Shown: positions 10,648 through 59,695 of the stretch, piece by piece | How positions within the stretch are numbered: the first letter of the stretch is position 1 | Layout: every line of letters begins with the position of its first letter | From: Cyanophora paradoxa CCMP329 | Lineage: Eukaryota > Plantae > Glaucophyta | Direction: 5' to 3' | DNA: 64,000 nucleotides | Assembly (NCBI GenBank): GCA_004431415.1 | Contig: QPMI01000392.1 | Coordinates: 21,168 to 85,167, forward strand | The notes under the pieces: model-generated | What the model saw: the letters and a program-made list of their open reading frames with translations, nothing else | Told to the model about the DNA's origin: nothing | The model's database searches: none | Made by a program: the position numbers and the translations under genes

Positions 10648-10804
10648 GGGGGCCAGTTTGCAACGTTTCGATGGTGCACCGGCGCACCATCGAATTTCAA
10701 CAGCACGCCGCGCCGCGCGAGTGCCCTCCGGCGCCTTCTGTAGCCCCCGGAGAGCTCGGAAATCGCTTCGGCGCCCGCCCAGCTCGTGCTGGCCCCGAGC
10801 GCAG
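10648..10804 (+). repeat. Dispersed repeat copy 1, containing 11-6-11 inverted repeat (10667-10694)
   Basis: TTCGATGGTGC-ACCGGC-GCACCATCGAA inside a ~60-bp near-invariant core also present at 23.7 kb and 59.55 kb. Confidence 0.9.
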
Positions 10805-11379
10805 CTGACGATCCCATGCCCATCGATATCGCCAGCCCGGAGCCCTCGGAGCGCAGCGCCCGCCCCGAGCCGCGCGAGCGGCTCGAAAGAGGCCGTCAGC
10901 TTGCAGGTGGGAGGCGCGCTCGCCGGCGGAGTCGCCGCCGCTCGTCCGCGGGCCCGGCTCGCGCGCGGTCGTGCACGAGCTCCCATCGCCGACGCTTCAA
11001 AGGGCAGTTTCCGCGGACGTGTGCTTGGCCGCGTGCGGATCGGACGGTCCGGGGCAGACGCGCGCGTGCGCCGCTCGGTACCGGTGCTCGCTCGATCGGC
11101 AGACGCGCACGCCGATCGCTTCGCGGGCAGCGGGGCCTGGCCTCGGCGGCCTGCATCGTGCGACGAAGAGGCGGGCGCGGCACGGTGCGATCCAGGCCCT
11201 CCCCGCCCGGCGGCGCGCGCCGCGACGGTGGGCCCGCCGCCGCCTCGCCCTTTGGCTCGCTCTCCGCGCGCCTCGCGCACGATACAGGCGTCGAGGCCGG
11301 TTCCTTCTACGGCCGCTCCCCCCCTCGCCTTCCCCCCCCTCTCCTCCCCGTTCCTCTCTAACGCCCGCCCTCGCCCGCC

Positions 11380-12670
11380 CGGCAGCCCGTACGGCTCGCG
11401 GCGCCGGCTCGCAGCAGGGGCAGCCCGGTCGATTCCTTCAACAGCACGTGTGGGCCCCCATCCTTGTTTCCCCCCTCGCGCACCCCGCCCTCGCTCGCCC
11501 GGCCCCCCGTACGGCTCTCAGCGCTGGCTCGTAGTAGGGGCGGCCTGGTCGATTCCGGCAACGGCACGTGTACCCCCTCTCTCGCCCCCCTCGCGCCCCC
11601 CCGCCCTCGCTCACCCAGGCCCCCCGTACGGCTCGCAGCGCCGGCTCGCAGTAGGGGGCGGCCTGGTCGATTCCGGCAACGGTACGTGTACCCCCTCGCT
11701 CGTCCCCCTCGCGTCCCCCCGCCCTCGCTCACCCGGGCCCCCCGTACGGCTCGCAGCGCCGGCTCGCAGTAGGGGCGGCCCGGTCGATTCCGGCAACGGC
11801 ACGTGTACCCCCGCTATCTCGCCTTTCTCACTTGTCGCTCATTGTCGCCGCGTCCCATCCTCTTGATCTTGTGGATTGACCAAGCGTAGCTTTCGGCCAG
11901 GCGGGCTATCAGGGGCGGGGCCCGGTCCGTCCGTACCCCCGCTCTCCCCCTCCCCCCACCTGCGCCCCGCGCCCCGCGTCTCGTCTCACAGAGCGCCCGC
12001 AGGACTCGGCCCCGCGGCCGTCGAGGGGGTACAGGCGCCGTAGCCGGAATCGACCCGGCGGGCTATCAGGGGCGGGGCCCGGTCCGTCCGTACCCCCCGC
12101 TCCCCCCTCCCCGGACCTGCGCCGCGCGCCCCGCGTCTCGTCTCACAGAGCGCCCGCAGGACTCGGCCCCGCCGCGAGGGTACAGGCCGTGCCGATCGAC
12201 CGGGGCTATCAGGCGGGCCGGTCGTCCGTACCCGCTCCCCCACCATGCCCGCGCCCGCGTCGTCCACAGAGCGCCGCAGATCGCCGCGGCTCGAGGGTAC
12301 AGGCCTAGCGATCGACCGGCGGCTATCAGGGGCGGGGCCCGGTCCGTCCGTACCCCCGCTCTCCCCCTCCCCCACCTGCGCCGCGCGCCCCGCGTCTCGT
12401 CTCACAGAGCGCCCGCAGGACTCGGCCCCGCGGCCGTCGAGGGGGTACAGGCGCCGTAGCCGGAATCGACCCGGCGGGCTATCAGGGGCGGGGCCCGGTC
12501 CGTCCGTACCCCCCGCTCCCCCCCTCCCCGGACCTGCGCCGCGCGCCCCGCGTCTCGTCTCACAGAGCGCCCGCAGGACTCGGCCCCGCGGCCGTCGAGG
12601 GGGTACAGGCGCCGTAGCCGGAATCGACCAGGCGGGCTATCAAGGGCGGGGCCCGGTCCGTCCGTCCCCT
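11380..12670. repeat. Bipartite array 1: 4 A units (+), then ~5 B units (-)
   Basis: A cores at 11427, 11547, 11665, 11782 (~118-bp period); reverse B cores at 12026, 12443, 12600 plus two deletion-riddled units. Confidence 0.95.
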
Positions 12671-13115
12671 TTTCCGAGAGCTCGCCGAGAGCCCGGGCTG
12701 CGGCAGGCCTTTGCGTTTGCACGCACGGTGCCGAGCGGGTCCCCTTCTTCCCAGCCCCGGCCGCCGGCAAAGCAAGACGGCGGACGAGGGGCCGGGCGCC
12801 GGCAGGCCCGTGGCGGCAGCGGGGGCCGCCGCAGCCGCTCCGCAGCGGACGCGGCCGGCGACGGGCGCGGACGAAATCGCTCTCGCCGATGAAATATGTA
12901 TCAGTGATCTATTAATTGCGCAAAGAAATCAGACTTGAATTCGGGATTCGAATTGCGCCGTGTCAATGCAAAGCCTTGCGGGGGGAAGAGGAAGAGGCGG
13001 GGGCGCTGGGGCATCCCGGACAGGGTACCAAGGGTAGATGATCACGATGGGCGCGCGGGCGCAACGGGTAGACGATACCGGAGGGCGGCGCGCGCGCTCG
13101 AATAAAATAACGCTC

Positions 13116-13162
13116 GGGATTCTCGGCGCCCGGGATTCCCGTCTGCCGCGTCGACAAAAGGG
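13116..13162 (+). promoter_or_regulatory. GGGATTCCC + TATA-like promoter
   Basis: GGGATTCTC 13116, GGGATTCCC 13132, GACAAAAGGG 13153, upstream of ATG 13269. Confidence 0.55.
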
Positions 13163-13268
13163 AGAGAGGCGGCCGAGCTCGGCACATTTGCGTGGTCGAA
13201 ACACGTCGACAACGACGGCAGCCACAGCACCTACAGCCGCAACCCGTAAACCCTTTTTGCAGAGAGCC

Positions 13269-14990
13269 ATGTCGACCGAGTCCGCCAACTTTGCCGCCGT
13301 CGACGCGTCGTCGGCCGCCGCGCGCGCCCTCTTCGGAGTCCGCCGGGCAGAGGCGTGGATCAAGGTCGGCTCGAGCCGCGCCATCGGGACGATCTGCGCG
13401 GCCGGCGCCGTCGCCGATGGCTCGGGCGGGGCGGCGCGCTTTGCCGTCCTCGTGCCGATGGTGCAGTCGCACTTTGCGTCCGTCATCAAGGGGACGAGCC
13501 TCTCGGCTGGCGCCCAGGAGGAGTGGACGCGTCTGCGGGTGGAGGTGGTCGAGAAGATTGGGGCCCAGCTCGTCCCCGGCGGCGGCTACGAGGCCGTGGG
13601 GGACATGTACCTGAGCCCCTCCGGATCGACGGCGCGCGATGTCGACGGGTCGATGCTTCTTGTCGTCGATTACATTCCTCGGCCGGGCCCCAAAATCATC
13701 GTCCGCATCCATCACCTGGAGATGCCGGGGCACGTCAGCCGCGGCTGGCTCGTTGAGGGTCGGGTGCTGCCTGCCGCGCCGGCGCCGGCCTCTGCAGGGG
13801 TGGCGCCGGCGCCGCCTGCACTTGCGCGCACCCCGCCGCCGGCCGCCCCCCAGCTCGCGATCGGCGGCGAGGTAACCGTCTTCGGGCTTTTCGCCTTTGG
13901 GGCCGGCGATCGCGTCTGCGGTCGCTCCGTCTCGTTGTTCGGCGCGGGATCGCGCTCGGGCTCTCCGCTCTCGATCTGGGCCGTGGTGGCGTTGGACGTC
14001 GGGATGGAGGCGCTCCGCGGGGGGGACTCGCTCGACGGCGAGGCGACGGATCGGAAGAGCGAGAAGGTCGTCGGCTGGATCGAAACGAGCCTTGCCGCCG
14101 AGCTGACGGCGTGGAACGGGGGGCGCCCGCTTCACGTGAGCATCCACGTCTACAACATCTGCTCGGGGGTGGATGCAGATATGGGACACATTCGCTTCGC
14201 CGCGGTGGCCATTCCCTGCGGGGAGGGGGAGACGCCCGTCGGCGAGTTTGTTGAGGGCGGGCCCACGCTGCCCAAGGAGGCCTTTTTCGGCCCTCACCCC
14301 GCGCACGCGAGCTGCATCAGGGCCCTGCGTCAGCGCGTGGCCGAACGGAACGCGCCCCTGGCAGGAGTGAGGCGGCGGGCGGCCGCGGGCGCCGTCGACG
14401 GCAAGAAGCTTAAGGAGGCGGCGGTGCGGCGGGCGGTGCCAGAGGACCTTCCGGAGGGGGAGGACGCGCTCCTTGCCCGCCTGCATCTGGCCATGGGCGA
14501 CGCGGCCGCCCGCGCCCTACCACGGGCCGCCCTGGCGAGGCGGGTCGCATGCCGCTCCACGGACCCCCGCATCCCCGAGGCGGCCGCCGCGGTCGGCGTC
14601 CGCTTCACCGCCCAGCACATCCTCCAGGCGGCCGGGCGCGGCGTCGACGTCGGGGGCGAGTACCTGGAGGCGATGTGCGCGGCGGCGGCCCCGGAGGAGC
14701 TGCGGGCGCTCGGGACGCGGCGGGACCTCGCCGAGGGGCTGCGGGCCGCCCTGGGCCGCCGCGGGGTCGCCCTCGCCGGCCCGAGCAACCGCGCCGCTCC
14801 CGTCGAGCCCGTCGTCGTGCGGGCGCCGACGGCGGCCGAGATGGCCGAGGCGGCGCAGCGCAGCCGGCAGAAGAAGCTGGAGGAGAAGGAGCTCCACCGC
14901 GCCCGCAACGAGGCCAAGCGCGCCGAGCGCGAGGAGGCGTCGACCTCGGGCCGCAGGAGCGGCCGCGCGACCCGCGGCCGCGCTCAGTAG
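13269..14990 (+). CDS. Intronless hypothetical protein, 573 aa
   Basis: Long ORF with globular-looking sequence; ATG in gccATG context after the shared promoter motif; basic C-terminus. Confidence 0.75.
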   Translation: MSTESANFAAVDASSAAARALFGVRRAEAWIKVGSSRAIGTICAAGAVADGSGGAARFAVLVPMVQSHFASVIKGTSLSAGAQEEWTRLRVEVVEKIGAQLVPGGGYEAVGDMYLSPSGSTARDVDGSMLLVVDYIPRPGPKIIVRIHHLEMPGHVSRGWLVEGRVLPAAPAPASAGVAPAPPALARTPPPAAPQLAIGGEVTVFGLFAFGAGDRVCGRSVSLFGAGSRSGSPLSIWAVVALDVGMEALRGGDSLDGEATDRKSEKVVGWIETSLAAELTAWNGGRPLHVSIHVYNICSGVDADMGHIRFAAVAIPCGEGETPVGEFVEGGPTLPKEAFFGPHPAHASCIRALRQRVAERNAPLAGVRRRAAAGAVDGKKLKEAAVRRAVPEDLPEGEDALLARLHLAMGDAAARALPRAALARRVACRSTDPRIPEAAAAVGVRFTAQHILQAAGRGVDVGGEYLEAMCAAAAPEELRALGTRRDLAEGLRAALGRRGVALAGPSNRAAPVEPVVVRAPTAAEMAEAAQRSRQKKLEEKELHRARNEAKRAEREEASTSGRRSGRATRGRAQ

Positions 14991-15339
14991 TCGGGTCGTG
15001 GTCATGTTCACGATCAGTGCGAAATACATAAATGTACCCTTAATTGGTTGTGCGAATCGGTGTTTCTCGCGACTCGTCTAGCGCGGGGCTCGACTGGGGC
15101 TGGCGGGGGGTACCCCGGTAGCCTCTCCATCCGCGCCGGCGCCCGAGAGAGCCGGGTGGGCTCCCGGGCGGGGAGCCGCGAGGCGGCAGGGTGCGAATCC
15201 GGCCGTCGCCGCGCGGGAAGAGCCCGGAGCCGGCCGCGGGGTAGACCCGGGCGGCGCCTCGCGCGCCGGTGCGGCGCGGGCGCCTGCGCGCCACCGCTCT
15301 CGGGAAATTTCAAATCGCACCCCGAATCAATATATTGGG

Positions 15340-15340
<1 letters not shown>

Positions 15341-15386
<46 letters not shown>
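15341..15386. repeat. poly-C tract (46 nt)
   Basis: Direct reading; lies between convergent genes. Confidence 0.9.
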
Positions 15387-15387
<1 letters not shown>

Positions 15388-15637
15388 CGCGCGCCCACGC
15401 CCGCCCGGCCCTATCCAATGGCTATAGTATTAATATTTGTTCGATTCGTGTGCAGCATACATCCTCACTCGCGATCGTGATTTCCAAACAGAAGAATCCA
15501 AATTTGAAGGACCGGAGAGAGGAATGCACGACTCGGTGATACGGAGAAAGGCACATCGGCCAGCGCAGCGGGTGGTACGGTACCGGTGGGTCTAGACTAG
15601 ATCTAGATCTGCAGGTGCCCTAATCGCCGCGTCAGGC

Positions 15638-16557
15638 CTAGGCACCGGGAGCGGGGCCGGGGCCGTAGCCCGCGGCCGTGCGCGAGGCCCGCCGCTGAAA
15701 CTCGCGGACCACGGGGAGCGCCGTGTACAGCGGGGTGGGGGCGAGGCCCCAGGCGGCGGCCGCGTGCCGCGGGCTGAGTCGCGGGGCCCCCGGCCCGCGG
15801 CTGAGGAGCACCGCCGCAGCGGCGACGGTGGCGGCGCGGATCTGCGGGATCCCGAGCTCGGGGGCCCTGCTCTCCCTGTGCCACCGCTCGGCCAGCGCGA
15901 GGGCGTCGGCCGTCTGGGCGCGGGTGCAGCCGAGGCGGGCCGCCAGCCCGGGCACGTAGAGGGCGGGCCCCACGCCCCCGTCCGTCCCGGGGGCGGGCGC
16001 CCCGGGGACCCTGCGGCGCAGCTCCCTGTAGCACCGGACGAGGGCGCGGCGCCGCGTGCCCTCGGGGCAGGCCGACTCGAACTCGCAGATCCGGCGCGGG
16101 ATATGCAGCGAGGTGCACGCCGAGTAGAGGGCCGCGAGGACCAGGAGCGAGTAGGGCCGCCCGTTGAAGAGTTCGGGCCGGAGCTTGAGCTGCCGCAGCG
16201 CCTCGGTCGCGGCGGCGGGGGGCAGGTTCAGCCGCTCGCAGGCGGAGCGGAGCTCCTCCAGCAGCCGCGGCCGTGCCTCGAGGGCGAGGCTCGTCGGCGA
16301 GGGTGGGCGCTTTGGTTTCGGGCGCTGGGCGCCGGCGGGGGCGGCGACGGCAAAGGCACCGGCGCCCGGGACGGGGGCGGGCCCGGCGCCCCGCGCGCCC
16401 GCACCGCCGGCCGGCGGCGCCCCTGGCTCGGGCTCGCGCTCGGGAGCGGCGGGGGTACAGCCCCGTTGCGCCTCGGGCGCGAGCCCGCCGTCCTCTCCGT
16501 CGATATCGTCGAGATCGATGTCCAGGTCGAGGTCGTCGAGCTCGAGGCTCGAATCGA

Positions 16558-16590
<33 letters not shown>

Positions 16591-16630
16591 TGGGGCCGGC
16601 AAAAGCCGGGGCGGGTGAGGCAGGGGCCAT
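15638..16630 (-). CDS. TFIIB-like cyclin-fold core (no Zn ribbon)
   Basis: CERLNLP..FNGRPYSLLVLAALYSAC..IPRRICEF (repeat 1); PALYVPGLAARLG..AATVAAAAVLL (repeat 2); TATAAAAG ~60 nt upstream. Confidence 0.8.
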
Positions 16631-16931
16631 ACTCCCGGGCTCCTGGTTGGTCCTCGACTGTCAGACCGCCGGCGGGGGCGGCCCCTCTTTATAGCCGGAA
16701 AGGGGGCGCGATTCCCGTCGACCGCAAGCCCGGGGGCTACGGGCCCGAGTTTGATCCTTTTCGTCTCGAATTCCAAATGAAATGAAATCGATTCGCAACT
16801 GTCACAATCGCAAATTACCGGAGCTACATCTAGATCCGTAGTTACGCATTCTACGTAATTACAACATACGATCTCATCGCGCGGGCGGCTCGGCGGCTCG
16901 CGCACGCCTTTGGCCCGCGGCGGCCCCCTGG

Positions 16932-18545: not shown

Positions 18546-19436
18546 ATGAATTTGGAGGATTTGCAACGCGGATACGCCCACGCGATGGCTCGTCTCTCGC
18601 ATGATCCGGAGGGCCGTCGGTCAGCGGTCGGGCACGTGGCCTGGGTCGGCGTGCGCCCCGACACAATCTGCGATCTGCTCAGGTTTTTCTTGCGGGACGC
18701 TAGCCCGAATCGCGCTTATTTTAAGCTTCTCCGACGTTGCCCCGGCCGCGAGAAAATGGAGGCCTGGCTCCACCAGCTCTCGACCCGGGACTCGAGCGGA
18801 CGGGATGTCGACCCGGAACGCGACGCGCTGCTCTCAGAGGTGACCAAGTTCCTTCACGCGAACTGGAAGCACGTCATCTGCCACCCCATCTCCGGCGAGC
18901 CCGTCGTCCCGATCGAATTCAAGGGGATCCCCTTTGGAAGCCGCGCGCGCACCGAGCTGGCACCGCCCACCGCGGTCTCAAGGACCCTGCTCAGCCTCGG
19001 GGACAACGATCTCTTGGGGCTCCTCGGAATCGCCGCCGAGACGACGGAGGTGGACGCTACGGACCTGAGATGGCGCCTCGACGAGCTCCTCCGCACGGTC
19101 AACGCATGGAGGCGCTTCCTCCTCTTCAACCCGACGTACATTCCGCCCGCTGGCTCTTGCAACTACGAGGATTGCCTCGACCTATGGGACAAGATCTGCA
19201 AGATTGTAGATCCGTACACGTACACTCCGTCTGTGTCATGGACGGCGAAACGAATGGTGCGGCGCCGGCCCGGGGCCCCCGAGGTCTTTGCGAAGAGAAG
19301 CCAGTGGGAGGCATACAAGACACGCATACGCCGGACGATCGAGTGCTACAGTTTTGCCGATCTCTGGTACGAGGGCGCCGGCGTCGCCCTCGCCGCCGGC
19401 GCCGGTGCCAAGCGCCAGCGCCCTTGCACGCGGTAG
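18546..19436 (+). CDS. Intronless hypothetical protein, 296 aa
   Basis: Complex, protein-like ORF directly after the promoter motif; C-terminal KRQRP (NLS-like). Confidence 0.8.
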   Translation: MNLEDLQRGYAHAMARLSHDPEGRRSAVGHVAWVGVRPDTICDLLRFFLRDASPNRAYFKLLRRCPGREKMEAWLHQLSTRDSSGRDVDPERDALLSEVTKFLHANWKHVICHPISGEPVVPIEFKGIPFGSRARTELAPPTAVSRTLLSLGDNDLLGLLGIAAETTEVDATDLRWRLDELLRTVNAWRRFLLFNPTYIPPAGSCNYEDCLDLWDKICKIVDPYTYTPSVSWTAKRMVRRRPGAPEVFAKRSQWEAYKTRIRRTIECYSFADLWYEGAGVALAAGAGAKRQRPCTR

Positions 19437-19802
19437 AGCTAGCTGCATCGACAGATCTACAGCTACAGCTAGCTGTAGACATGTGCGTATATATACGTGA
19501 AGTATGGACACGGAATTTGGAATCTGGTTACAATATCACGTTATACTCTTGCCGATGCGAAATGTACTCTCGCGTGCACTACCGTATACGTATATAGGCC
19601 GCGCCCTGCAGCTGTGCCCAACCCGACCAATGCAACGCACCCAGCTGCGGGGCAAACTCGCATTCGGATTCGCGAGTGCGGGCCGCCCGGGCGTCGCAGA
19701 TCTAGATATTCGATATCGACAGCGTAGACGCGCCTGATTGCTATTATTTCTATCATTCGAAATAGATACATGTAGCGGTAGCTAACGGTACCTGGCATCC
19801 GT

Positions 19803-20093
19803 TTAAGACCCTCCCTCGCCCTCGAGCCCACCGTCGCCGTCGACGACGTTGCCGGCGATGATTCGGTCCTCTTCTTCCATGAATCTGACTCCAAGCTCGA
19901 CGAGGTGCTCCCACGTCACCGACGCCTCGACTGCGACCAGATCTTCGAGCGTCTCGTAGTCGACGCCTGCGAGAAAGACCGTCTCTACGTCTTCAGCCCG
20001 CGTCGCCGTCGCGCCGGCGCCGTGCATCTCGCTCAGCTGCGGGCCGGCCGCGGGGCCCGCGAGGGCGATGGGCGTACGCATGCGCGGCGGCAT
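19803..20093 (-). CDS. Small acidic protein with one TWE..V.LG.RF.E..RI motif
   Basis: ATAAAAGGG at ~20160 and GGGATTCCC 20183 upstream; motif shared with 37450-37812. Confidence 0.7.
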   Translation of the reverse strand: MPPRMRTPIALAGPAAGPQLSEMHGAGATATRAEDVETVFLAGVDYETLEDLVAVEASVTWEHLVELGVRFMEEEDRIIAGNVVDGDGGLEGEGGS

Positions 20094-20571
20094 TGCCTCC
20101 CTGATTGACGCCTCTTTTCTGCGGAAATGGAGTCTGACCGGATGGTGCGATGGACCATCCCTTTTATGGGTCTGCCGACGCCGGGATTCCCATGGCCGAC
20201 CCCCGCGTCGACGCCTGGATTCCCAACGTTGACCCCTGCGCCCCCGCGCCAGGTACGTAGACGGTCCTAGTAGGCCTCTGCGCGGGCAACGATCAGAGTT
20301 TGATTTCGCACGCATGTTCCCGGGTTTGAGGTTCTACGGTTTTGTTTGTAATTACAAGCTTCAGATCGAATCATCAACGGTGCATGCACATAGATGTGAC
20401 ACGCGCTATAGCTAGCGCCTGCAATTATCGTTGCCGGGGCCAAACAGAAACGTTGTACTGTAATTATGATTATAACATGTACCTGCATACCTAGGCATAT
20501 GCCTCCCTGGACAGAGATCTAGAGATCTAGATATGCATGCATATCTAGCTATAGGATCTAGATCCGCGTAA

Positions 20572-20811
20572 TTAGAGCGGCTTGGCGGTGGCGACGAGGA
20601 TGATCTCGCCCGTCGAGGGCGAGACGGTCAGCTCGCACTCGACGCGCAGGTTGAGCGCCCGCAGGCCACGGGTGATGAATGGGTCGGAGAGGATATCCTG
20701 GCAAAGTCGCTCCATCGACGCGGCCGCCCCCGGGGGGGCGACGGCGTACATCTTGTCGCCTGTCGTGGTGATCAGGGTGTGGAAGGGGAGGCCGGCGTTC
20801 CGGTTGTCCAT
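20572..20811 (-). CDS. Small hypothetical protein, 79 aa
   Basis: Protein-like ORF; two GGGAATCCC at 20881 and 20894 upstream; 22-bp palindrome downstream. Confidence 0.65.
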   Translation of the reverse strand: MDNRNAGLPFHTLITTTGDKMYAVAPPGAAASMERLCQDILSDPFITRGLRALNLRVECELTVSPSTGEIILVATAKPL

Positions 20812-21302
20812 GCTGCGGGTGGCAGGAGCTAGAGTGAGAAGTCGCCCACCGCCCAGCGCAGTTTTGTGCGCCCATCAATCGGGAATCCCAGGCGGGAATC
20901 CCAACAGGTACCGGTGCGGCGCCGTCAACGTTAACGTGCTACGGTACCCACGACCTTGAGCTCGATCGCGATATCGATCCGGATCTCGAGCGTGTGGGCA
21001 CGTGCACCGGCCTCGTGCGCACGTGATGATGCATATGATCACCGCGTGTCGAACTCCCACTGATATAATAATATATCCACGTGCTGGCGCGTGCGCCGGC
21101 CACTGCGGGGGCTGCGACGTGAATTGAGCGCAAGCGCTCCTCGTCGCGATCTTATTCGAGTTCCGAATGCGCTTTTTGAACCCGAAACCCTCCGGCGGCC
21201 AACGGCGGCCAACCCCCTGTCGATCGGATTTTCTGGATCTTTGATTGCGTTCAATGTCATGAGTCACAAAATGAATTTAATTTCTGTACATCGACTTGAA
21301 CA

Positions 21303-21734
21303 CTAGTACTGCCACCACGAGGCTGCATAGCACTCGGGCATAGCCACGATAGCTGCAGGCGTGCCACAAAGCGGGCGGGGCGGATCCGAATCGATGTCCC
21401 ACTCGCGATCGCACGTCCGTGCGCTCCATGAGGTCTGGAGCTCGCCTTTGCCGGCGCACCCCTCGCCCGCTTCGAATTTCGCCCTCCAAACGGCGTCCAC
21501 GTCGACGTCGACGTCCGAGCCACGTGCACGCAGGTCGTCGGGTTTGAATTTGTCGTCTAGATCTCCGAGCAGCGTACACGTGTAGCCATCGGGCCCGAAA
21601 TTGCCCTGGATGAAGGCCAGCGCGTGCGCCTCGCCCTCGCGCTCCTCCAGCTCGTTTACCATTTGAAGTTCATCCTCGTATGCGTAGCCCTCGTCCGTGG
21701 GCACGAGCGGGGTGAAGCAACGTGCGGTCGACAT
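21303..21734 (-). CDS. Acidic hypothetical protein, ~143 aa
   Basis: MSTARC start lies downstream of GGGATTCCC 21840 / GGGAATCCC 21884. Confidence 0.6.
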   Translation of the reverse strand: MSTARCFTPLVPTDEGYAYEDELQMVNELEEREGEAHALAFIQGNFGPDGYTCTLLGDLDDKFKPDDLRARGSDVDVDVDAVWRAKFEAGEGCAGKGELQTSWSARTCDREWDIDSDPPRPLCGTPAAIVAMPECYAASWWQY

Positions 21735-22095
21735 CCAATTGCAAGATCGATCTCCTCGCGATTTTTCGCGAAACGCAAATGACGCTGCACCTCGGGCCCG
21801 CTCCCGTTTTGTGGGCATGGCCATGGGCTGGCGCGGCGCGGGATTCCCGGCCGCGGCCCGGCCCCCTCTCAAAAACGACCGACGGGAATCCCGGACGCTA
21901 ATCGGGATCGCGGCTCGGGCTCCCAGGAGGTGCCGATGGCCGCGGCATTCATATGCATACTCGCTACCTCCGATAGCCTCGTCGTTGCATTGCGTAACAA
22001 ATCGACACAAGCATTCGAATTCATCACCCGCTTACAGCTTTGGAAAATACACTATTCATGCTACGTGGGACGATCCGTCCGGCCGCCGGCCATGG

Positions 22096-23649: not shown

Positions 23650-23767
23650 CGAATCTAGGGCTCTACAAGGGCTAGAGAAGGCTCCGGAGGGCCTTTGCGC
23701 GGCGTGGCGTGCTGTTGAAATTCGATGGTGCGCCGGTGCACCATCGAAACGTTGCAAACTGGCCCCC
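23650..23767 (-). repeat. Dispersed repeat copy 2 (inverted), 11-6-11 site at 23721-23748
   Basis: TTCGATGGTGC-GCCGGT-GCACCATCGAA, the reverse complement of copy 1. Confidence 0.9.
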
Positions 23768-29674: not shown

Positions 29675-29706
<32 letters not shown>

Positions 29707-35100: not shown

Positions 35101-35153
35101 TCCTCCCATCTTCCCCCTTGCAATATTAATTGATTGGAACGTGCATGTGCTCT

Positions 35154-42615: not shown

Positions 42616-42648
<33 letters not shown>

Positions 42649-42675
42649 CGGGGGGGGGAGGGGGGGGGGTCCCGA

Positions 42676-49299: not shown

Positions 49300-49330
<31 letters not shown>

Positions 49331-51275
49331 CTCGCCCGCGGCGGCCGGCGGCGGGAGCGTCACGCGCTCCGGGTCGGCGACGTCGGCCTCGCAGAAGAGG
49401 TAGACGTCCCCGACGAGCGCCGACTCGAGCAGGCTCCGAAAGTGCTCCCTCTTTCCCGCGATAAAGCGCCCGTTGATCGCCTTTCTCTCCTCGTACGAGG
49501 GCGACTTGGTGCGCAGGTAGTGGATGGCGCCGGTGCGCAGCTCGTCGTCCCAGGGAAAGCCGAGGAGCGCCTCGCTCACCACGCTCTCCGCAAAGTAGAG
49601 GACCCCTGCGCGCGCGCGGCGGTGCGTCGGCTTCCCTTCCCTCTGCAGCGTACCCCTCGCTGAGAGGCGGCGGGGCGCGCACAGATGCCGCACTGGTACC
49701 CGTCGGCCTGCAGCCGCAGCTGCGTCTCGACCTCGAACTCAAAGCTCGGAAAGGCCTTCTTCGCCGCCCGCTCCAGCGACGGGTCCGGGCGCGCGCCCAG
49801 GCTGTCAAAGTAGCGGGTGCGGCGCAGGTCGCCGGAGATCACGAGGAGCGTCCAGTGGCCCCCCGCGCTCCAGGTTCGCTCCGACCCGCGCCGCACGAGC
49901 CCGCCCGAGACGGGACACAGGATGACGCGCCCCTCCTCCGCCGCCCCCAGGGCGCGGCGCCGGCGCTTCTCGGGGCTGGCGCGGGCGTGGCGGCGCAGGA
50001 GGCTCGTCGCAATGTCGAGCGTCATGGGGTACAGGGCCCGGACGCGGGGCGCCGCGCTGGCCCGCGCCAGCACGATCGAGAGGCAGTTGGCGATGTGCTG
50101 GTCCTGCCGCCGCCGCCCGCGCTGAGCGCTCCCGCACCCCTCCCCCCGCCCAGTCCCGCCCCGCGCGCCCCTCTGCTCACCGTGAGCCACTCGCGCTTCG
50201 TAAAGATGGCGATGCGGCGGGCAGGGGCGAGGGGCAGCGGGGCGGCGGCCTCGATCTCGGCGGCGTCGGCGCCCTCGAGGGCCAGGCGCTGGCGGCGGAA
50301 CGGCACGAGGAGCTCGTCGCCGAAGCGCGGCAGGCCCTGGAGGATCCTCTCGGCGCCGGCGAGGCTGATGAAGCCCCACTTGCGCGCCGCCCCGCGCGTC
50401 GCCTCGCCCTCGACCTCGGCGTTCAGCCCGGCGTACAGCGTCAGCGTCTGACCCCCCGGCCGCGGGCGGTCACGATCAGCCGGCGCTTGCAGCTGGCTGG
50501 GGAGGCGGGAGGCGGGCGCGCGCCTTGGTGAGGAGGGCGAAGCGGGCCCGCCCGACGACGTCGGTCCGCGCCTCGAAGCGAAAAGGCGAGTCGGCCCCGA
50601 GGTCGGGGTGCTTGCGCCTGATCTCGGCCCGCAGCGAGGGGACGTCCCGCGAGGAGCCGTACGCCGCCTGCGCGAGGGACGCGATGGGCGCGTACCACTC
50701 GACGTCCTGCGGCAGGGTGAGCGCGGGGCGGGGCGGGGCGGGGCGGGGCCGGGGGCGTCGCTCACGGGGACCTCGATGCGCTTGCAGCGGAGGGCAAAGA
50801 CGCGGGCGGCGCTGGAGGGCCCGAGGCGGAGGACGCGGAGCTCGACGCGCTCGAAGGACTCGAGCCGGCGGCGCTCGATCGCGGCGAGGATGTGGCGGGC
50901 GACGCACCGCTTCCGCGCGCTCACCCCGGGGTCCTCGTCCCACCGCTCGCACACGATCTGCTCGGCGTGGCGGAGCGAGACGACGCGCGGCGGGTTCCCG
51001 TCGGGCCGGTGCGCCCCGCGGCGGATCACGCCGAGCATCTCGAGCAGCAGGATCGTCTCCTCGCTCGCGACGGGCCTGCAGGGGACGCGGTACAGGTCCG
51101 CCAGCGCCCGGTCGGGGTCCTCCGGCGGCTCATCGGGGGCGTAGATGAGGATGCGGCGCAGCTCGGCGACGGGCACGACGAGGCCGGCGTCGGAGCGCAG
51201 CAGGATCAGGCGGTCCCGGCCCCACAGGCCGTCGAACTCGGCGACCTCGTAGGCGTCCTTGACCACGCTGAACAT
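46382..51275 (-). CDS. Multidomain tyrosine recombinase: Ski/Dach-like domain - ULP1 (C48) protease - YR - C2H2 finger - AT-hook
   Basis: Exons 51275-50766, 50706-50524, 50447-50181, 50103-49683, 49605-48925, 48849-48590, 48482-47979, 47905-47113, 47053-46382. ULP1: WLTDQHI, HWTLLVI, YFDSL, QADGYQCG. YR: PAR, SKT, RAMR, LQHS, THYD. The C-terminal extension needs two homopolymer corrections near 47550-47620. Confidence 0.8.
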
Positions 51276-52430
51276 CCCGCCCCGCCCGCCGCCCCGCCCC
51301 CTGCGCCTCCCCGCTCGCTCCCGTAGCCCTTCTATCAGCTCGGGCCCCTATATATGGCCGGCTCCGCCCCTCGCCCCGGCCTTGGCCGGCCCTCTCGGAG
51401 CCTCCGGGGGGCCTCGGGGCGCAGATTTGATCCGCCCCCGGCCGGCGCCACCGGCGCGCCCCGGCGCCGCGGGGAGCGCGTATTTAGCGTCTGCGAGTCT
51501 CGTAGTGTTCAAATAGAGCGCCGGTTCCATTCCACGGGCCTCTCCTGGCGAGTTGGGGGCGGGGGGGTCCCGGGGGGGCCTCCCCCCGAGACCCTAGGAT
51601 CGGCTCCGGGTATGGAACTGGTATTTTTTCCTGAGCCTCTGGGCCTCGGAGATGCCTTAAACGGCCTTGGTTCCGTTCGGGGGCCCCCGGAATAGCCTCC
51701 TTTGGGGGGGGTCCAGTTCTGGTGGCACCTTTCAATGGGGCCTCTGGCAACGCGGCCGGCGGGCTCGGCATGGAACAGAGTGCCTAAAACGCATTCTCGA
51801 TGCACTAGGAAGCGATTTACATCGTTAGTTCCCCGCGGTCCCGGTACCCGGGGTTTCGGCCGACCCCCGGCCGGGGCTTTTCGGTCGGACCTGGCGCGCC
51901 TGAGCCCCGCCCCGCGGGCCGAGGAGGCACGAATTCGCATCTGCAGTGAAGCCCGGGCTAATAGAGCGCTTCGTCTCTGCCGGAGCTCTCGTCGGGGGGC
52001 CCGAGCCCCGGGGGCGGGGCCCTGCGCCCTGGCGCGGCGCGAGCGCAGAGGCGGCTGCCGGGGATCGTTCCAAGCGTTCTTCTGATGCATTCCGAGCTAA
52101 TAGAACGCATCGTCTGCGGGCGTAAACGCCGGCGCCGGGCTCCCTGGCCTCGGGTCGGGACGGTTTCGAATACGCCCGGGGCCGCTTTCCGCTGTCGCTT
52201 GAGCTTGATGCAGTGCGTCCTGCACGCTCAGAGCGAGCTGCGCGGCGTGCTCGCGGCTGCGCCGGCGCCGGGCAGAATATAATTATAATCACGTGCCTGA
52301 ATTGGACCGTCGGACCTGCAGCCCAGCGGCTGCAGCTGGCGGTCGAGCAGATAAGCATGTCGTTCGCTTTTGATTAGTGCCCCCGGTGGCCCAGTGGCTT
52401 TCGACCCCCGCGGTCTACTCATATATAACA

Positions 52431-53514
52431 ATGCCCCGCATCAAGGTAGGAAAATGATCATGAAAGCCCGCTGAATTCATATCTGCGATTCTTAGTTCTT
52501 TCGAGTTCGTTGAACATTGTAATTATACTTTGCAGCAAACTGCCAAGCGTGGCACCGGAAACAAGGCCCCGCGAAAGGCATTCAAGAGCTCCGGCGCCAG
52601 CGGCCTCAAGACCAAAGCCGCGCGGAAAAAGGCTGTGGGCGAGGGCGGAGTGAGAAAGCCGTTCCGGTCGGCCTGCTCTCTTCCCTACGTTTTATTTTCA
52701 AGAGAAAGTCCCGGCACGTGAGAATCGCGCGCTCGCGCAGCCATCGCCCTGGGACGGTGGCAAAGCGCGAAATTGTGAAGTACGTTCAATGTTTTTATTT
52801 CACTCTTGTTCAAATCTATTTAAATCTAGATCTGAGACAAATAAATTCTGAATGAAACCCCGCTCCTGTTCAGGTACCAGAAGACCTACAATGCCCTCAT
52901 TCCGCTGGCCCCGTTCGGCCGCCTGGTACGTGTGGGGGCCCTTCAAAACTTGAAATTATCCTCTGCCGCCCGAGCCCTGTGCCCTGCTGTGCGGCGCGTG
53001 CACGTGCGCAGGTGCGCGAGCTCACGGCCGCGATGATCAAGGAAGACGTGGAGGCCGGTCTTCGTGAACAATCTGTCAACTTTCGGTTCACAAAGGTGCG
53101 CGCCCGTGCCGCAGTGCCGGGCGCGGGGGGGGTGCGAATAGCTGGCTGATTAATATTTCATGTCTTGCAGGACACTATCCGGGCCATTCGCGAGGCCGCC
53201 GAGGCGCACATCATTCGCTGGTTCGAGGGTGGTGTCCTCGCGGCCAAGCACCGCAAGCGAGTCACGGTCGGGTGCGCACGCGTAAGGTCTTGCCCTATTT
53301 TGATTACAAATGCCGCAGTGCCTCTTCCGTCCTTGATTATAACTATAAGCATGGCTTAAGCTCCCTCTGCCAGGCTGCTTCTTTAATTATAATGTCACGC
53401 TCGGATTGATGCTAATCGCGACTGTCCTAATCCTTGAATTTGGACAGCCCTGCAGACACGGATCTTGCGCGACGCTTGAAGGGAGACACGGCGGCCGACA
53501 CCGAGAGCGCCTGA
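52431..53514 (+). CDS. H3: Divergent histone H3 variant, 162 aa, 7 exons
   Basis: Exons 52431-52445, 52536-52666, 52741-52779, 52874-52925, 53012-53095, 53171-53271, 53448-53514 give MPRIKQTAKRGTGNKAPRK..KAARKK..GGVRKPFRHRPGTVAKREIVKYQK..PFGRLVRE..EAAEAH..HRKRVTVGPADTDLARRLKG. Confidence 0.92.
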
Positions 53515-53943: not shown

Positions 53944-56268
53944 TCAGTCGCCTTTGGCGCTGGCCTCGCCGGCGCCTTCGGCGGCCCCTTCCTCGCCCGA
54001 CGCCTCGCTCTGCTCGTCCCCGTCCCCGTCCCGTCGCTCTCGCCGGCCTCCCGAAGCTCCAGCACCGAGCCGTCAAAGACAAAGCCCTTGGCGCGCTGCA
54101 CCTCTTCCGCGAGCCGCTCCCGGATCTGGTCCGCCCCTCTTTCGTGCAGCCCTTCAGGAGCGGGAGGCAGCTGACAAAGTCGACGACCGATATGCCGCTC
54201 CCGCAGACGCGCGCAAGGCCAGGGAACCTCGTGAGCGTCTCTCCCAGCGCGCGGAGGTCGTTGTAGATCTCGGACTGCGCGAGCCTCGAGTGAGCGACGT
54301 CGAAAGCTCGCCGGGCCGGGTACGCGTGCTCGCGGCTGCAGCTAGGGGCCCGCCCCCGCACCCTCCTCCCGCAAGGGAATTCGAAGCGACCTCACCTTTT
54401 GGGCGCTGACCTCGAGGCGAAAGCCGGCCGCCTGGAGGATGGCGTCGTACTTGGCGCAGAGGTGCTCGGCGCGGTAGGCGCCCCAGAGGCGGCGGTTGCG
54501 GCCGTAGCGCTCCGTGTAGGCCTGGTGGACGGCGAGGACGGAGCAGGCGATGAGCATGATGCAGCGGATCCGCTCCCGCCCGCCTCTTCGATGCGGTTCA
54601 GGAGGGCCGCGCGGGCCTCCGGGCTGGCGTCGATCTGGCGCCCGATGAGCCCCGGGTCGATCCCCGCCTCGAGCCCAAAGTCGTAGGCCTCCAGCGACTC
54701 TGGGTCGAGCCCGCCCTCGCCCTCGCCCCCGCCCCCGGCGGGGCCCTCGGCGAGCTCGTCGGCGTCGTCCGCGCCGCCCTCGGCCCGCTCCGCCTCGGCG
54801 AGGGCCTTGCGCCAGCGCTCCGCGAGCTCCTTGCCCCGCGGGTCCGGCGAGCCGGCGCGCGAGCCGTCCTCCTCGCTGCCCGAGCCGCCGCCGCCGCCCC
54901 GCCGCCCTCGGGCCCGGCCTCGATGGCGAGGGGGCCGCCGCCGCCTTGCCCTTGCCCTTGCCCTTGCCGCCGCCGCCGCTGCTGCCGCCGCCGCCGCCGC
55001 CGCTCCCGGCCGAGCTGCCCCCTCCGACTCGGAGCGCGCGTCCTCGTCCTTGGGGCGCGTGTACGCGTTGTAGAGGACGCGGATGAGCTTGTCCGACTCC
55101 CACTCCTTGCGGCGGTCGCGCCCGGCGCCCCACTTGCTCCGCGCCGCCCGCCGCGCCGGCTTCGAGGGGCCGGCGCCCGAGCCGGACCCGGGGCCGGCGC
55201 CCTGCGCCGAGGCCGACGCCGACGCCGCCTCGGGGTCGGGGGAGCTCGCCGGCTTGGGCGGGCGCAGCGTCTTGCGCCGCTCCAGCGCCCGCTCCTCGGC
55301 GCCGTCCTCCCCCTCTTCCTGCTCGGCCGCCGACTCGCCCCGCGCCGGGCCCTTGGTCGACGTCGCGGCGCGCTTGGCGCGCGATCGCGAGGGCCGGCGG
55401 CCGGCCCCTCCTCCTCCTTCTCCTCCCCTCCTCCTCGGCGGCCGGGCCCGGGCCCGAGGCGGCGCCCTTTTCCTTGCGCTTCTTGCCGCCCTGGGCCTTG
55501 GCGCCCGCGGCCGGCTCCCCCGGGCCAGGGGGGCGGCCGCCGGCGCCGGCGGCTGGGCGGCGGGCGCGGATCCGTCGGACGGGGCGGCGGCTCCGGGGCC
55601 AGAGCCAGAGCCCGAGCTCGGGCCCGCCCCGGCGGGGGCCGCGGGGGCCGGGGGCGGGCCGCCGCCGCCGGCGGCGGCGGGGCGCGGGCCTCGGCGGCGG
55701 CCGCCTGGAAGCGCTCGAGGGCGTACGTGAGCGCCGTGCGGAGGCAGAGGTCGCCGGAGATCCACGAGGCGGCAAAGGCGGCGTCGTCGATGTAGGCGAG
55801 AAAGGAAAAGAGGGCGTCGATGCGGGAGCTGCAGACGAGGCCCGAGGCGGCCGGGTGGGGTCGCCGCAGCTGGGGCAGGTGAAGAGGGGCGGCGAGGCGC
55901 CGCCCTCGGCGCTGACGGAGAGGAGGGTGAGGGCGCAGCTGAGGCAGACGAACGAGCCGGTCGAGTTGAACTTGAGGTCGTCGAGGGCGGGGCGCGGGTG
56001 CGCGTCGAGGGCCTCGTTGACGGACGAGGCGCCGGTCTTGGCGAGGAGGCGGGCGGCGGCGCAGGAGAGGAGGATCGGGGGGAGGATGCGCTCCGACTTG
56101 CAGCGGGCGCAGGCGGGGCGGCAGGAGAGGAGCGGGTCCCGCCCAGGCTGATGAACGCGGGAGGCTGACCTTGGCCGGCCGCGAGTCGAGGGGCGGGCAG
56201 CCGGACGCGCCGCCCGCCGCGCCCCGCGGGCTCGTCACCTGGGCCCCCGACGCCGGCTGCGACGCCAT
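53944..56268 (-). CDS. Cys-pair / low-complexity / helical-domain protein, paralog of 7688-10505 (several apparent frameshifts)
   Basis: CARC..CLSC..CPSC; RCIMLIACSVL..LWGAYR..; LGETLTRFPGLARV; intron from 54395; TATA ~56352. Confidence 0.6.
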
Positions 56269-56559
56269 CGCCGGAGGCAGGGGGGAAGGAGGAGGACCCC
56301 GGCAGAAGGGGCCTGCGGGTCTCGTCGGGAGGATCGGGGGGCCGGCGACTCCTATATATGCCCCATCGGGGCCCGCCGGGATGGGCAAAAGCGGGCAGAC
56401 GGGGCGGCGGGGGTGAGGGGAGGGGTACGGTGGGAAGGACGCGTGCCGGGGCGGGGCGGCGGCCGGCGGTGGGCGATGGCCCCGCGGGCCCCAACGACGG
56501 CGCGCGGGCCCCGCGGTGGGCGCCGCGAAACGGCGCCCGCCGAGAGTCGTCCGGTTTTG

Positions 56560-58400
56560 ACCCGCCCGGTCGATTCCGGCTACGGCGCCTGTACCCCTGG
56601 GGCGGCCCGCGAGCCCGCGGTGAGACGAGGCGAGCGGCGGGGGGCGGGGCGAGCGGGGGTACGGACGGACCGGGCCCGCCGCTTATGGCCCGCCTGGTCG
56701 ATTCCGGCTACGGCGCCTGTACCCCTGGGCGGGCCGGCAAGCACGTCGGTGAGACGAGGCGAGCGGCCAGAGGGTGCAGGGGAGCGGGGTACGGACGAAC
56801 CGGGCCCCGCCGCTTATCGCCCGCCTGGTCGATTCCGGCTACGGCGCCTGTACCCTGGGCCGGCCCGCGAGCCCTCGGTGAGACGAGGCGAGCGGCCAGA
56901 GGGTGCAGGGTACGGACGAACCGGGCCCGCCGCTTATGGCCCGCCTGGTCGATTCCGGCTACGGCGCCTGTACCCCTGGCGGGCCCGTGAGCTCTTCGGT
57001 GAGACGCGGCGAGCGGCCAGAGGGTGCGGGGAAGCAGGGGTACGGACGGACCGAGCCCCGTCGCTTATGGCCCGCCTGGTCGATTCCGGCTACGGCGCCT
57101 GTACCCCTGGGCGGACCGCGAGCTCTCGATGAGACGAGGCGAGCGGCCAGAGGGTGCGGGGGAAGCGGGGTACGGAGGAACCGAGCCCCGCCGCTTATCG
57201 CCCGCCTGGTCGATTCCGGCTACGGCGCCTGTACCCCTGGGCGGGCCCGCGAGCTCTCGATGAGACGAGGCGACCGGCCAGAGGGTGCGGGGAAGCGGGG
57301 GTACGGACGAACCGAGCCCCGCCGCTTATCGCCCGCCTGGTCGATTCCGGCTACGGCACCTGTACCCCTGGGCGGGCCCGCGAGCCCTCGGTGAGACGAG
57401 GCGAGCGGCCAGAGAGTGCGGGGGAAGCGGGGGTACGGACGAACCGAGCCCCGCCGCTTATGGCCCGCCTGGTCGATTCCGGCTACGGCGCCTGTACCCC
57501 TGGGCGGGCCCGCGAGCACGTCGGTGAGACGAGGCGGCGGTGCGCGAACTCTCTGTGAGATGGGGGCGAGCGGTCGGAGGGTGCGGAAGCGCGCGAAGGG
57601 GTGGGTCGAGAGGAAAGGCAAACGACAGCGTTAGCAGGGGTACACGCACCGTAGCCGGAATCGACCAGGCCGCCCCTACTGCGGGCCAGCGCCGCGGGCC
57701 GGACGGGGCGCCGAGTGAGCGAGGGCGGGGCGCGGAGAGGGCGCGTTGTGGGGTACACACGCCGTAGCCGGAATCGACCAGGCCGCCCCTACTGCGAGCC
57801 TGCTGCTGCGGGTCGAACGGGGCGCAGGGTGAGCGAGGGCGGGGCCACGCGAGGGGTCGAGAAAGGGGGGCACACACGCCGTAGCCGGAATCGACCAGGC
57901 CGCCCCTACTGAGAGCCAGCTGCTGCGGGCCGGACGGGCCGCCGAGTGAGCGAGGGCGGGGGGCGGAGAAGGCGCGTTGGGGGGTACACACGCCGTTGCC
58001 GGAATCGACCAGGCCGCCCCTACTGAGAGCCAGCTGCGCGGGCCGTACGGGCCGCCGAGTGTGCGGGGGCGGGGGGCGCTCGAAGGGGGCGAGAGGCCAA
58101 GGGGGGTACACACGCCGTTGCCGGAATCGACCAGGCCGCCCCTACTGCGAGCCTGCTGCTTCGGGCCGTACGGGTCGTCGAGTGAGCGAGGGAGGGGCGC
58201 TCGAAGGGGGCGAGAGACCTAGGGGGGTACACACAGCGTAGCCGGAATCGACCAGGCCGCCCCTACTGAGAGCCTGCTGCTGCGGGCCGTACGGGCCGCC
58301 GAGTGAGCGAGGGCGGGGGCGCTCGAGGGGAGGGGGGGGGGGCGAGAGACCTAGGGGGGTACACACAGCGTAGCCGGAATCGACCAGGCCGCCCCTACTG
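56560..58400. repeat. Bipartite array 4: 8 B units (+), then 7 A units (-)
   Basis: B cores 56568-57500; reverse A cores 57637-58385; degenerate core ~58490. Confidence 0.96.
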
Positions 58401-59537
58401 CGGGCCAGCGCTGCGATCGCTCTGGGTGAGCGATGGCGGGCGCGGACAAGGCGAGGAGCGCGGGCCGGTGGGGGAGGGAAAAAGAGCGGGGTGGACCGGC
58501 CGTACCCGGAATCGGCCCGATCGCTCTTCCGCGCCCCCGCGTGGGGTACGAGGCTCGTACGCGCCCGCCCAGCAGCGCTAGCGCCCCTCGAGCGCCGAGC
58601 CTGCCGAGGCGATGAGCACCGCACCGAGCTCGAGAGCTCGACGGGAAGAAAGGGAACCGGTCGAGGGGGTGCGCGGGCGCACTCCCCACGAGGCCCCGGG
58701 CGCTCTTGGCTCGCCCAGCGGGCCGGCTGCCGAGGGCTTGGCGTGGGCGGGGAAGAGGATCCAGAGGGGGCGCTCGAAGCGGGCGAGGCGCCGGGCCGCG
58801 CTCACCCTCGCGATGGACGCCCCGCCGCCGCTTGCGCCGCCGCCGCCGCAGGGCATCGGCCGGCTCCCCGTGCCGACCGACGTCCCGGCGCCCGGCCTCG
58901 CCAGGCCGCTGCCGCGCGTCCCGCCACCCGAGCAGGCGGCCCCGAAGCGCACCAAGCGATCCGCTCTGGGCGACGGGGCGCCGCGGCCCGGCGCCGAGGC
59001 CTGGGCCGGTTGAGCGCCGGCCGGCTCCGGCGGGGCGGGCCCGGCCGGGGCGCGCGGGCGCGCGTAGGTATGAGCCGCTTTGGATTCGAACTGTACGCAG
59101 GAAGAGCTCGCGGGCGCGCAGAAACTTAATCCGGCGTCGGCGCCCTGCGGGGCGAGGGACAGAGGCACGTCAGCCGCAGCGGACTCCGGGATCGAAAGTT
59201 GCATGCGGGCCGCGGCCGCCGAGCAGGCTAGGACGAAAGGGAGGCGCACGAGCCGCGCGGGTAGCTGGAACCGCCCGAGGCGTGGCTCTCTCGGGAGAGC
59301 AGAAGGGAGGCTCGCGGCTCGGGCGCGACAGAGCGCCGCACGAGCAGCTCGTGGTCCGCTGCTCTCTGTGCGTGGGATCGCTGTGGTTTTCTCTGTGTCT
59401 GTTTTTTTGCGACCAAGTGTACCCCGCAGATTCGCCGCAGCAGTGTTGCAAGCTGCAGCCAGCTGCCGCCGCAGCCCCCCGCGCGCGTTCTCGCAACGCT
59501 GGCCAGCAGAGCCTTCATGCGCATGCGCAGCTCTTTC

Positions 59538-59695
59538 GGGGGGCCAGTTTGCAACGTTCTGATGGTGCACCGGCGCACCATCGAATTTCAACAGCACGCC
59601 GCGTCGCGCGCGTGCCCTCTGGCGCAGTCCATAGCGCCTGTAGGGCTCGAAAATCGCGTCGCCGCCCGCCCAGCTCGTGCTCGGGTCGAGCGCAG
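59538..59695 (+). repeat. Dispersed repeat copy 3, 11-6-11 site at 59558-59585
   Basis: TCTGATGGTGC-ACCGGC-GCACCATCGAA (2 changes in the left arm); ~155 bp homologous to copy 1. Confidence 0.9.

Follow-up and report, generated by a model that had tools for sequence, protein, structure and literature searches.

Three copies of a palindromic site within a conserved block

Positions 21,168 to 85,167 of contig QPMI01000392.1, from the Cyanophora paradoxa CCMP329 assembly GCA_004431415.1, form a 64,000-nt stretch (hereafter the window, in whose own coordinates all positions are given) that is a mosaic of segments with 56–80% GC. It holds a tyrosine-recombinase gene, a long open reading frame (ORF) with primase-like and helicase-like parts, several sets of tandem arrays and, at three places, a 28-bp palindrome of two 11-bp arms around a 6-bp spacer, TTCGATGGTGC-ACCGGC-GCACCATCGAA. 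An original prediction, made from the sequence alone, had proposed these 11-6-11 palindromes as lox- or dif-like targets of the encoded recombinase, and the palindromes themselves lie where it had placed them. Copy 1 (10667–10694, plus strand) has perfect arms; copy 2 (23721–23748, minus strand) is an exact match to the 28-mer, again with perfect arms, and is inverted relative to the other two; copy 3 (59558–59585, plus strand) carries two mismatches at positions 2–3 of the left arm (TCTG for TTCG), which are uncompensated and leave 9 of the 11 arm positions paired. Copies 1 and 3 are in direct orientation, 48,891 bp apart. The spacer ACCGGC is identical in all three copies and is asymmetric with respect to its own reverse complement only at its two outer positions.

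The 28-mer was matched in none of 100 dinucleotide shuffles. A sensitive blastn search with the sequence block around the palindrome returned no further copy in the window, and a dyad scan allowing up to seven mismatches added a single seven-mismatch match at 50053, which is the level seen in shuffled sequence (one or two per shuffle). The half-site GATGGTGC occurs 12 times in the window against 1.9 expected; the six occurrences of GATGGTGC outside the palindromes have no common flanks, and the half-site and dyad scans found neither extra arm copies nor pseudo-sites near the recombinase gene.

Each palindrome occupies 28 nt of a 62-nt core, which lies at 10648–10709 (copy 1, plus strand), 23706–23767 (copy 2, minus strand, no differences from copy 1) and 59539–59600 (copy 3, plus strand, two differences). 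The original claim of a near-invariant core of about 60 bp with diverged flanks was thus accurate: only 2 of the 62 core columns vary, compared with 25 of 66 in the adjacent 66 nt (Fisher p = 6e-7), where any pair of copies differs at 14–21 positions. Invariance also extends past the palindrome, by 19 nt on its left and 15 nt on its right (34 nt together), and the sole two variable core positions fall within the palindrome, in the left arm of copy 3, with no compensating change in the right arm. Judged by this contrast in variable columns with the neighbouring sequence, the core is under selective constraint. It is also a local dip in GC content (0.60, against 0.68–0.71 in the flanks).

Around the core, the copies can be aligned over a longer block, the number and extent of which are read directly from pairwise comparison. 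Copies 1 and 3 align at 10588–10822 and 59464–59713 with 79% identity over 250 nt, and copies 1 and 2 at 10642–10778 and 23773–23637 with 88% identity over 137 nt, so that the block spans ~10588–10822 (against copy 3) or 10642–10778 (against copy 2) at copy 1, ~23625–23778 at copy 2 and ~59464–59713 at copy 3. Homology between copies 1 and 2 ends abruptly on one side, at a run of seven T (10640–10646, plus strand) that forms the sharp left edge of the copy 1 block and has a run of six A (23769–23774) as its counterpart at copy 2, and fades across 66–110 nt on the other; at copy 3 the run is degenerate (CTTTC). In its left flank, copy 1 is related to copy 3 only. Pairwise comparison of the copies placed no homology edge at the spacer.

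Coding potential and folding of the block

The original prediction had carried the caveat that the segment is also open in one reading frame (RAVEIRWCAGAPS.RCKLAP), with some synonymous changes. The frame is indeed open in all three copies; an excess of synonymous changes was not recovered. Each codon phase takes a similar share of the differences between copies (11/7/8, 6/4/6 and 10/6/7), synonymous and non-synonymous codon differences in that frame stand at 9/12, 3/9 and 6/11, with the other frames no worse, and in no reading frame of the block do synonymous changes outnumber non-synonymous ones. A frame plot of GC at third codon positions (GC3) gave no coding signal at 10530–13290, 19290–28500 or 54930–64000, and the open frame across the copy 1 block had no protein match in a collection of 5.8 billion sequences. 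The block is non-coding.

Nor did the block behave as a structured RNA. No Rfam family matched in the window, none of the 40 pairs predicted by RNAalifold was compensatory and several were broken, and the folding of the copy 1 block was not unusual (z = -1.4). As DNA, the core folds at -12.8 kcal/mol (z = -2.0); an extended dyad or cruciform was rejected on this fold, in which nothing stable lay past the 11-bp stem.

Transcription and assembly at the three copies

The stretch was found in 15 public sequencing runs of one organism labelled as DNA or unknown (X1–X15) and in four labelled as RNA by guess (X16–X19), each in the form of assembled contigs. The four latter runs behave like RNA, having gaps where the DNA runs provide cover and a splice joint seen in two studies. 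At copy 1, contigs of these runs, from two studies, cover 10648–11326 on a strand that the contigs do not reveal (X16, 10655–11065; X18, 10648–11184 and 11155–11326), a cover of 680 nt that spans the palindrome and reaches the neighbouring A array; the X18 contig begins at the first base of the core, preceded by 23 unplaced letters. Beside copy 2, a spliced transcript runs on the plus strand over 23792–24565, between the block and its A array. In it, X16 and X18 join 24031 to 24285, and the CAG common to both sides of the joint places a GT..AG intron at 24035–24287. On this side the contigs stop at 23792 and 23815, with no loose letters and 18–40 nt beyond the block's A run, a weak hint of a transcript start site. 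Low-depth contigs at copy 3 cover 59619–60093 and run into the A array; over the core and left side of this copy (58460–59618) X16–X19 gave only an 18-nt match (59207–59224), a gap that proves nothing.

To the left of copy 1 lies a coding ORF on the minus strand (9960–10529, with a GC3 signal at 9931–10530), for which no protein relatives were found in the near-length range. Its contigs end at 10505 (54 unplaced letters) and 10510 (64 unplaced letters), with a minus-strand AG immediately preceding each end, and this suggests an upstream exon further to the right. We read the GT at 10632–10631 (minus strand), directly after the A run, as a candidate splice donor. Among the contigs listed, none of X16 or X18 covers 10511–10647; this gap likewise proves nothing.

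Two of the DNA runs (X1 and X4) have contigs that end at 10677 and resume at 10683, within the palindrome. Because a graph built with k = 31 must break in a three-copy repeat of 62 nt (the first copy-specific bases being 10647 on one side and 10710/10713 on the other), we read these breaks as an effect of assembly and not of recombination.

Tandem arrays around the copies

Each copy lies near an array of 118–124-bp A units, at a distance of 670 bp (copy 1), ~900–966 bp (copy 2) or 584 bp (copy 3), 0.6–1.1 kb overall. The distances in the original description, of sites 0.6–1 kb upstream of an A block, therefore hold; the word upstream fails for copy 2, which is inverted relative to its array. 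To the right of copy 1, the arrays occupy 11364–12700 on the plus strand, with 118-bp A units at 11364–11812 followed by ~158-bp B units at 11893–12700. Those to the right of copy 2 (24647–28349, plus strand) comprise 124-bp A units to ~26186 and ~130-bp B units from 26171. Copy 3 has arrays on both sides: an inverted set to the left (56561–58456, minus strand; B' at 56561–57540 and A' at 57637–58456) and a direct set to the right (60169–61348, plus strand; A at 60169–60633 and B at 60673–61348). A further inverted B'/A' pair at 35149–35821 (minus strand) has no block beside it.

The 0.6–1.1-kb spacers between block and array have no homology among the three copies, and no paralogous ORFs are common to the three neighbourhoods; the conserved block thus stands alone as a module and faces the arrays in either orientation. 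The palindrome half-site is absent from the A and B units, and sign changes of GC skew near the sites track the arrays. As an observation on the arrays themselves, A and B units have in common one conserved motif of ~30 nt (…GGTCGATTCCGGCTACGG…TGTACCCC), in opposite orientations, so that each pair of A and B arrays is an inverted arrangement of this motif. A T-loop-like GGTCGATTCC within it may hint at an origin from a tRNA.

A family of Cre/Xer-like recombinases

The tyrosine-recombinase region lies between copies 1 and 3, as had been predicted, at 47660–48898 on the minus strand. It is split over three frame pieces (48581–48898, 47964–48491 and 47660–47914), and by eye two frame changes or introns are needed to join them. 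The gene is 8.7 kb from copy 3, 23.9 kb from copy 2 and 37.0 kb from copy 1. Its middle piece matches three eukaryote gene models on differently named contigs with 99%, 98% and 56% identity, and because these matches fall on several contigs the family is multi-copy; two of its lineages are 49% identical over 1026 aa. A HMMER search with the recombinase part of the 56% relative (P0004) returned 173 relatives. The recombinase family is conserved, probably also mobile, and could itself constitute a compact transposon.

The assignment of the family came from profile and structure comparison. The Pfam recombinase model stayed below threshold on the three pieces in the window and on gene models P0002 and P0004, and PF00589 was found in 2 of the 25 relatives scanned, one of them above the cut-off. 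A profile of 20 family sequences, in turn, matches the archaeal XerA structure 4a8e (E = 2e-5), and the best Foldseek matches of an AlphaFold model of the family (predicted local distance difference test, pLDDT, 84.6) were Cre, XerA, XerH and XerD, tyrosine recombinases only. Language-model features compared with recombinase clusters gave a score of 0.96. Of the catalytic set R..K..(H/K)xxR..H..Y that marks such enzymes, R173 and K211 are invariant and R289 nearly so in the alignment of 20 sequences, and the H and Y motif (H..QTAT.HY) was read by eye in P0002 and P0004. By its predicted fold, the encoded enzyme is a simple two-domain tyrosine recombinase of the Cre/Xer kind.

In gene model P0002 (1517 aa), the recombinase is joined to a GIY-YIG domain and to a part that resembles Ulp1, with a sub-threshold Pfam match (E = 0.005). 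A gene chain that matches P0002 extends over 45766–51347 (minus strand) in the window, with an N-terminal domain of unassigned kind, a Ulp1-like cysteine-protease motif, the recombinase, a C2H2-like finger and GIY-YIG; several frame changes or introns are needed to read it, and near-identical and 56%-identical copies are present on other contigs. The family would be worth describing in its own right: it has 173 relatives, the majority of which the Pfam model misses, and gene models here show it fused to a Ulp1-like part.

A putative primase-helicase and other genes

The ORF of 1949 aa at 28572–34418 (minus strand) has a primase-polymerase-like N-terminus and a superfamily 2 helicase part of UL9 type (Herpes_ori_bp-like), both weakly supported: Pfam matches were LigD_Prim-Pol at E = 0.0013 and Herpes_ori_bp at E = 0.039, the latter below the cut-off, and by language-model features the helicase part was nearest to clusters that carry Herpes_ori_bp (0.98, 220 shared features). 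We treat both assignments as leads from sequence resemblance. GC3 points to a frame change at ~29100–29600, such that the translation of the C-terminal third follows, in part, a wrong frame. A phmmer search of the primase-helicase against the PDB gave nothing meaningful, and of three pattern matches in IMG/VR none was confirmed as a relative. A/B and B'/A' arrays flank the ORF in mirror order, and a RING-finger ORF (34324–35097, plus strand) accompanies them.

Pfam was run on 196 of the 356 stop-to-stop ORFs of at least 100 aa; coverage was 137 of 138 for ORFs below 0.72 GC and 59 of 218 for those at 0.72 or more. Among the ORFs scanned, RING, F-box and GIY-YIG were the only families to pass, and no capsid or packaging gene was recognised. 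A histone H3 gene had also been proposed for the region. What stands of it are H3-tail-like motifs (KAPRK, TKAARK and YQKT) at ~52500–53100 on the plus strand, in a stop-interrupted frame, as if split by introns; the 110-aa ORF at this place had no Pfam match. A tRNA-Ala(GGC) of 90 nt was called just upstream of these motifs, at 51994–52083.

Functional interpretation of the block

We favour, at a little under an even chance, the reading that the three sites are copies of a protein-binding control element, a non-coding block of ~140–250 nt with an invariant 62-nt core. The 28-bp palindrome would be the binding site of a sequence-specific protein dimer, and the invariant bases on either side would act with the neighbouring T/A run as a compact promoter or leader. 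The block would then stand at the edge of transcription units that head towards the neighbouring A/B arrays, with transcription at copy 1 also running towards the gene on the left. Its logic would recall that of the homologous regions of large DNA viruses, which are palindromic and dispersed. The invariant core, the contig cover at copy 1 and the plus-strand spliced transcript beside copy 2 are observed, whereas protein binding, promoter or enhancer function and transcript start positions are inferred. The selective constraint, the absence of coding signal and the local GC dip of the core all speak for such an element. A control element of this kind would explain why the conserved footprint is wider than the palindrome, why a T/A run lies at its sharp edge, why the block is found in either orientation beside the arrays (as expected of an orientation-independent element) and why transcribed stretches cover the block or start beside it. 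Such a clean and very strongly constrained cis-element could serve to identify the protein behind the organisation of transcription, or of replication, around the arrays.

Several points weigh against a control element. Perfect identity over 62 nt exceeds the needs of an ordinary promoter, and no known promoter motif was recognised in the block, for which no motif search was made. The evidence from sequencing runs consists of assembled contigs, from which the strand at copies 1 and 3 and true transcript ends are unreadable, and the RNA label of X16–X19 is a guess. Among the contigs listed, the core itself is covered only at copy 1, and there the X18 boundary at 10648 may mark a joint and not a start. 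The viral and metagenome collections yielded no relatives of the block from other genomes for comparison. Finally, 11-6-11 geometry in the company of a Cre/Xer-fold recombinase fits site-specific recombination at least as neatly.

That rival, which the original prediction had put forward, takes the palindromes as lox/dif-like core sites of the recombinase encoded at ~47.7–48.9 kb: two monomers would bind the 11-bp arms of each site and strands would be exchanged across the 6-bp spacer. We regard it as a serious candidate that is nonetheless rather unlikely. Simple two-domain recombinases of the Cre/Xer kind use minimal sites, with arms of 11–13 bp and spacers of 6–8 bp, and the exact 11-6-11 geometry falls within these bounds; the asymmetric spacer is the same in all three copies, the gene lies between copies 1 and 3, and its family, of which this assembly has multiple copies, is conserved and, probably, a mobile one. 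The pattern of constraint argues the other way, as invariance continues for 34 nt past the arms and the sole changes fall inside an arm; constraint confined to arms and spacer, typical of minimal sites although no strict requirement, is thus not what the copies display, and homology between them never ends at the spacer. The gene is moreover split, with two frame changes or introns in the window, stands 8.7–37.0 kb from the sites, possibly in a separate compact element, and has no extra arm copies or pseudo-sites near it. Three active sites in both orientations would render the region unstable, and guessed-RNA contigs that cover or abut the block are less expected of a minimal site. As to products, copies 1 and 3 would recombine to excise a 48.9-kb circle and copy 2 would permit a 13- or 36-kb inversion, a scenario that is possible but unsupported. 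The larger picture, in which a virus-like eukaryotic element with a primase fused to a UL9-type helicase leaves the chromosome as a ~49-kb circle (copy 1 with copy 3) or flips segments of 13 or 36 kb through copy 2, a 2-micron-style system in a protist chromosome, seems to us doubtful. Were the block a recombinase target, it would be among very few defined Cre/Xer-like sites in eukaryotes outside yeast plasmids, and a direct handle on the movement of a large element with its own primase-helicase.

Two further readings would tie the block to the maintenance or the ends of a large element. In one, which we think improbable, the element's own primase-helicase would start replication at the block, as an origin or a piece of one; the inverted arms would be recognised by the UL9-type helicase or by a partner protein, which would open the less GC-rich core and the T/A run. 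The weak LigD_Prim-Pol and Herpes_ori_bp matches of the 1949-aa ORF, the Herpes_ori_bp-carrying neighbours of its helicase part, the dispersal of several copies, the local GC dip, the tandem arrays nearby and transcription on at least one side would all suit an origin. The spacer is GC-rich, however, with no AT-rich unwinding element, GC skew near the sites follows the arrays, and the helicase assignment is itself sub-threshold or a lead only; since the DNA-binding specificity of UL9 resides outside its helicase domain, homology of the helicase predicts nothing about the site in any case. In the other, less probable still, a large integrated element (polinton-like or of another kind) would end in terminal inverted repeats, and the block would be their conserved tip or lie subterminally in them. 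Copies 2 (minus) and 3 (plus) are inverted and 35.8 kb apart, each followed inwards by ~1 kb, then A and then B, such that the arrays are mirrored inside; copies 1 and 2, with their sharp homology edge at the T/A run, could likewise bracket 13 kb. Polinton-like viruses that encode tyrosine recombinases are reported to be 14–40 kb in length, their inverted repeats measuring from 100 bp to 8 kb (PMC12220804), which would suit this reading. The block-to-array spacers of 0.6–1.1 kb are unrelated, however; no target-site duplication was seen by eye at the edges of copies 1 and 2, capsid and packaging genes are missing from the Pfam results for the 196 ORFs covered, and with arrays also on the other side of copy 3 and the copy 1 block flipped relative to copy 2, no single pairing fits all three copies. 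Last, the block could be read as a short exon that encodes protein (minus-strand frame ...RAVEIRWCAGAPSKRCKLAP...) or as a gene for a structured RNA, on the strength of the open frame, of the 11-bp hairpin that the palindrome allows and of the guessed-RNA contigs over copy 1; this reading is already largely refuted and highly improbable: for an exon, codon phases are flat, with no synonymous excess, GC3 signal or protein match, and for an RNA, pairs are broken and none of 40 is compensatory, folding is ordinary (z = -1.4) and no Rfam family matches.

Comparison with known systems

In shape, the block matches the minimal core sites loxP, FRT and dif, having inverted 11-bp arms, a 6-bp asymmetric spacer and a Cre/Xer-fold recombinase in the same region; it differs from them in its 34 further invariant nucleotides, in the presence of three sites in both orientations and in a gene that is at least 8.7 kb away and may belong to another element. 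It is a candidate member of that class. Closest to this class in an episomal setting is the yeast 2-micron plasmid family, whose FRT sites lie in long identical inverted repeats. There, as could happen here, inverted recombinase-type sites flip the segment between them and replication genes are carried on the element; in the window, by contrast, identity is limited to 62 nt, the DNA lies within a long contig and a third, direct copy is present.

Baculoviruses and other large DNA viruses carry homologous regions (hrs), dispersed palindromes that act as enhancers and origins, with a palindrome within each repeat unit. The copies described here are likewise dispersed, non-coding palindromes of ~28 bp in a GC-mosaic region with virus-like genes, with direct repeats near and transcription units flanking them. 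Unlike in hrs, where several clusters carry the palindrome inside each direct-repeat unit, there is one palindrome per site, outside the tandem units, and the region has neither a known trans-activator nor an established viral nature. Herpesvirus origins consist of inverted binding sites for a UL9-type origin-binding helicase, between divergent transcripts and near repeat arrays. The block resembles them in its inverted, protein-sized half-sites between transcription units, with GC-rich arrays and a weakly Herpes_ori_bp-like helicase nearby, and departs from them in its short GC-rich spacer, the lack of an AT-rich element between the arms and a helicase match below the Pfam cut-off.

The 22-nt centre of the palindrome had no match in IMG/VR. 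In Joint Genome Institute (JGI) metagenomes, 15 loci matched the arms with any spacer; having unrelated flanks and other spacers, they were set aside as chance matches in other organisms. The accessible parts of the literature on glaucophyte algae and on recombinase or primase elements contained no description of these sites.

Other features of the window

Two duplications lie in an island of 57–64% GC. A 1.1-kb segment is present at 36013–37136 and 38125–39287 with 96% identity and encodes a protein of ~240 aa to which no family was assigned, and two F-box-type paralogues, 55% identical over 249 aa, occupy 39756–40787 and 41359–42675. Homopolymer tracts of C or G, 20–45 nt in length, occur at 7447–7478, 8346–8366, 15342–15386 and 42617–42650; together with long G/A-rich low-complexity stretches, such tracts sit at the edges of GC-rich segments. 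An ORF at 15641–16660 (minus strand) has a strong GC3 signal and a weak resemblance to TFIIB repeats (Pfam E = 0.2). At 12681–16273 and 21179–22223, DNA contigs from X1 and X4 show 10–36 differences from the window, small indels and about twice the depth of neighbouring single-copy contigs, which suggests diverged extra copies of these segments elsewhere in the genome.

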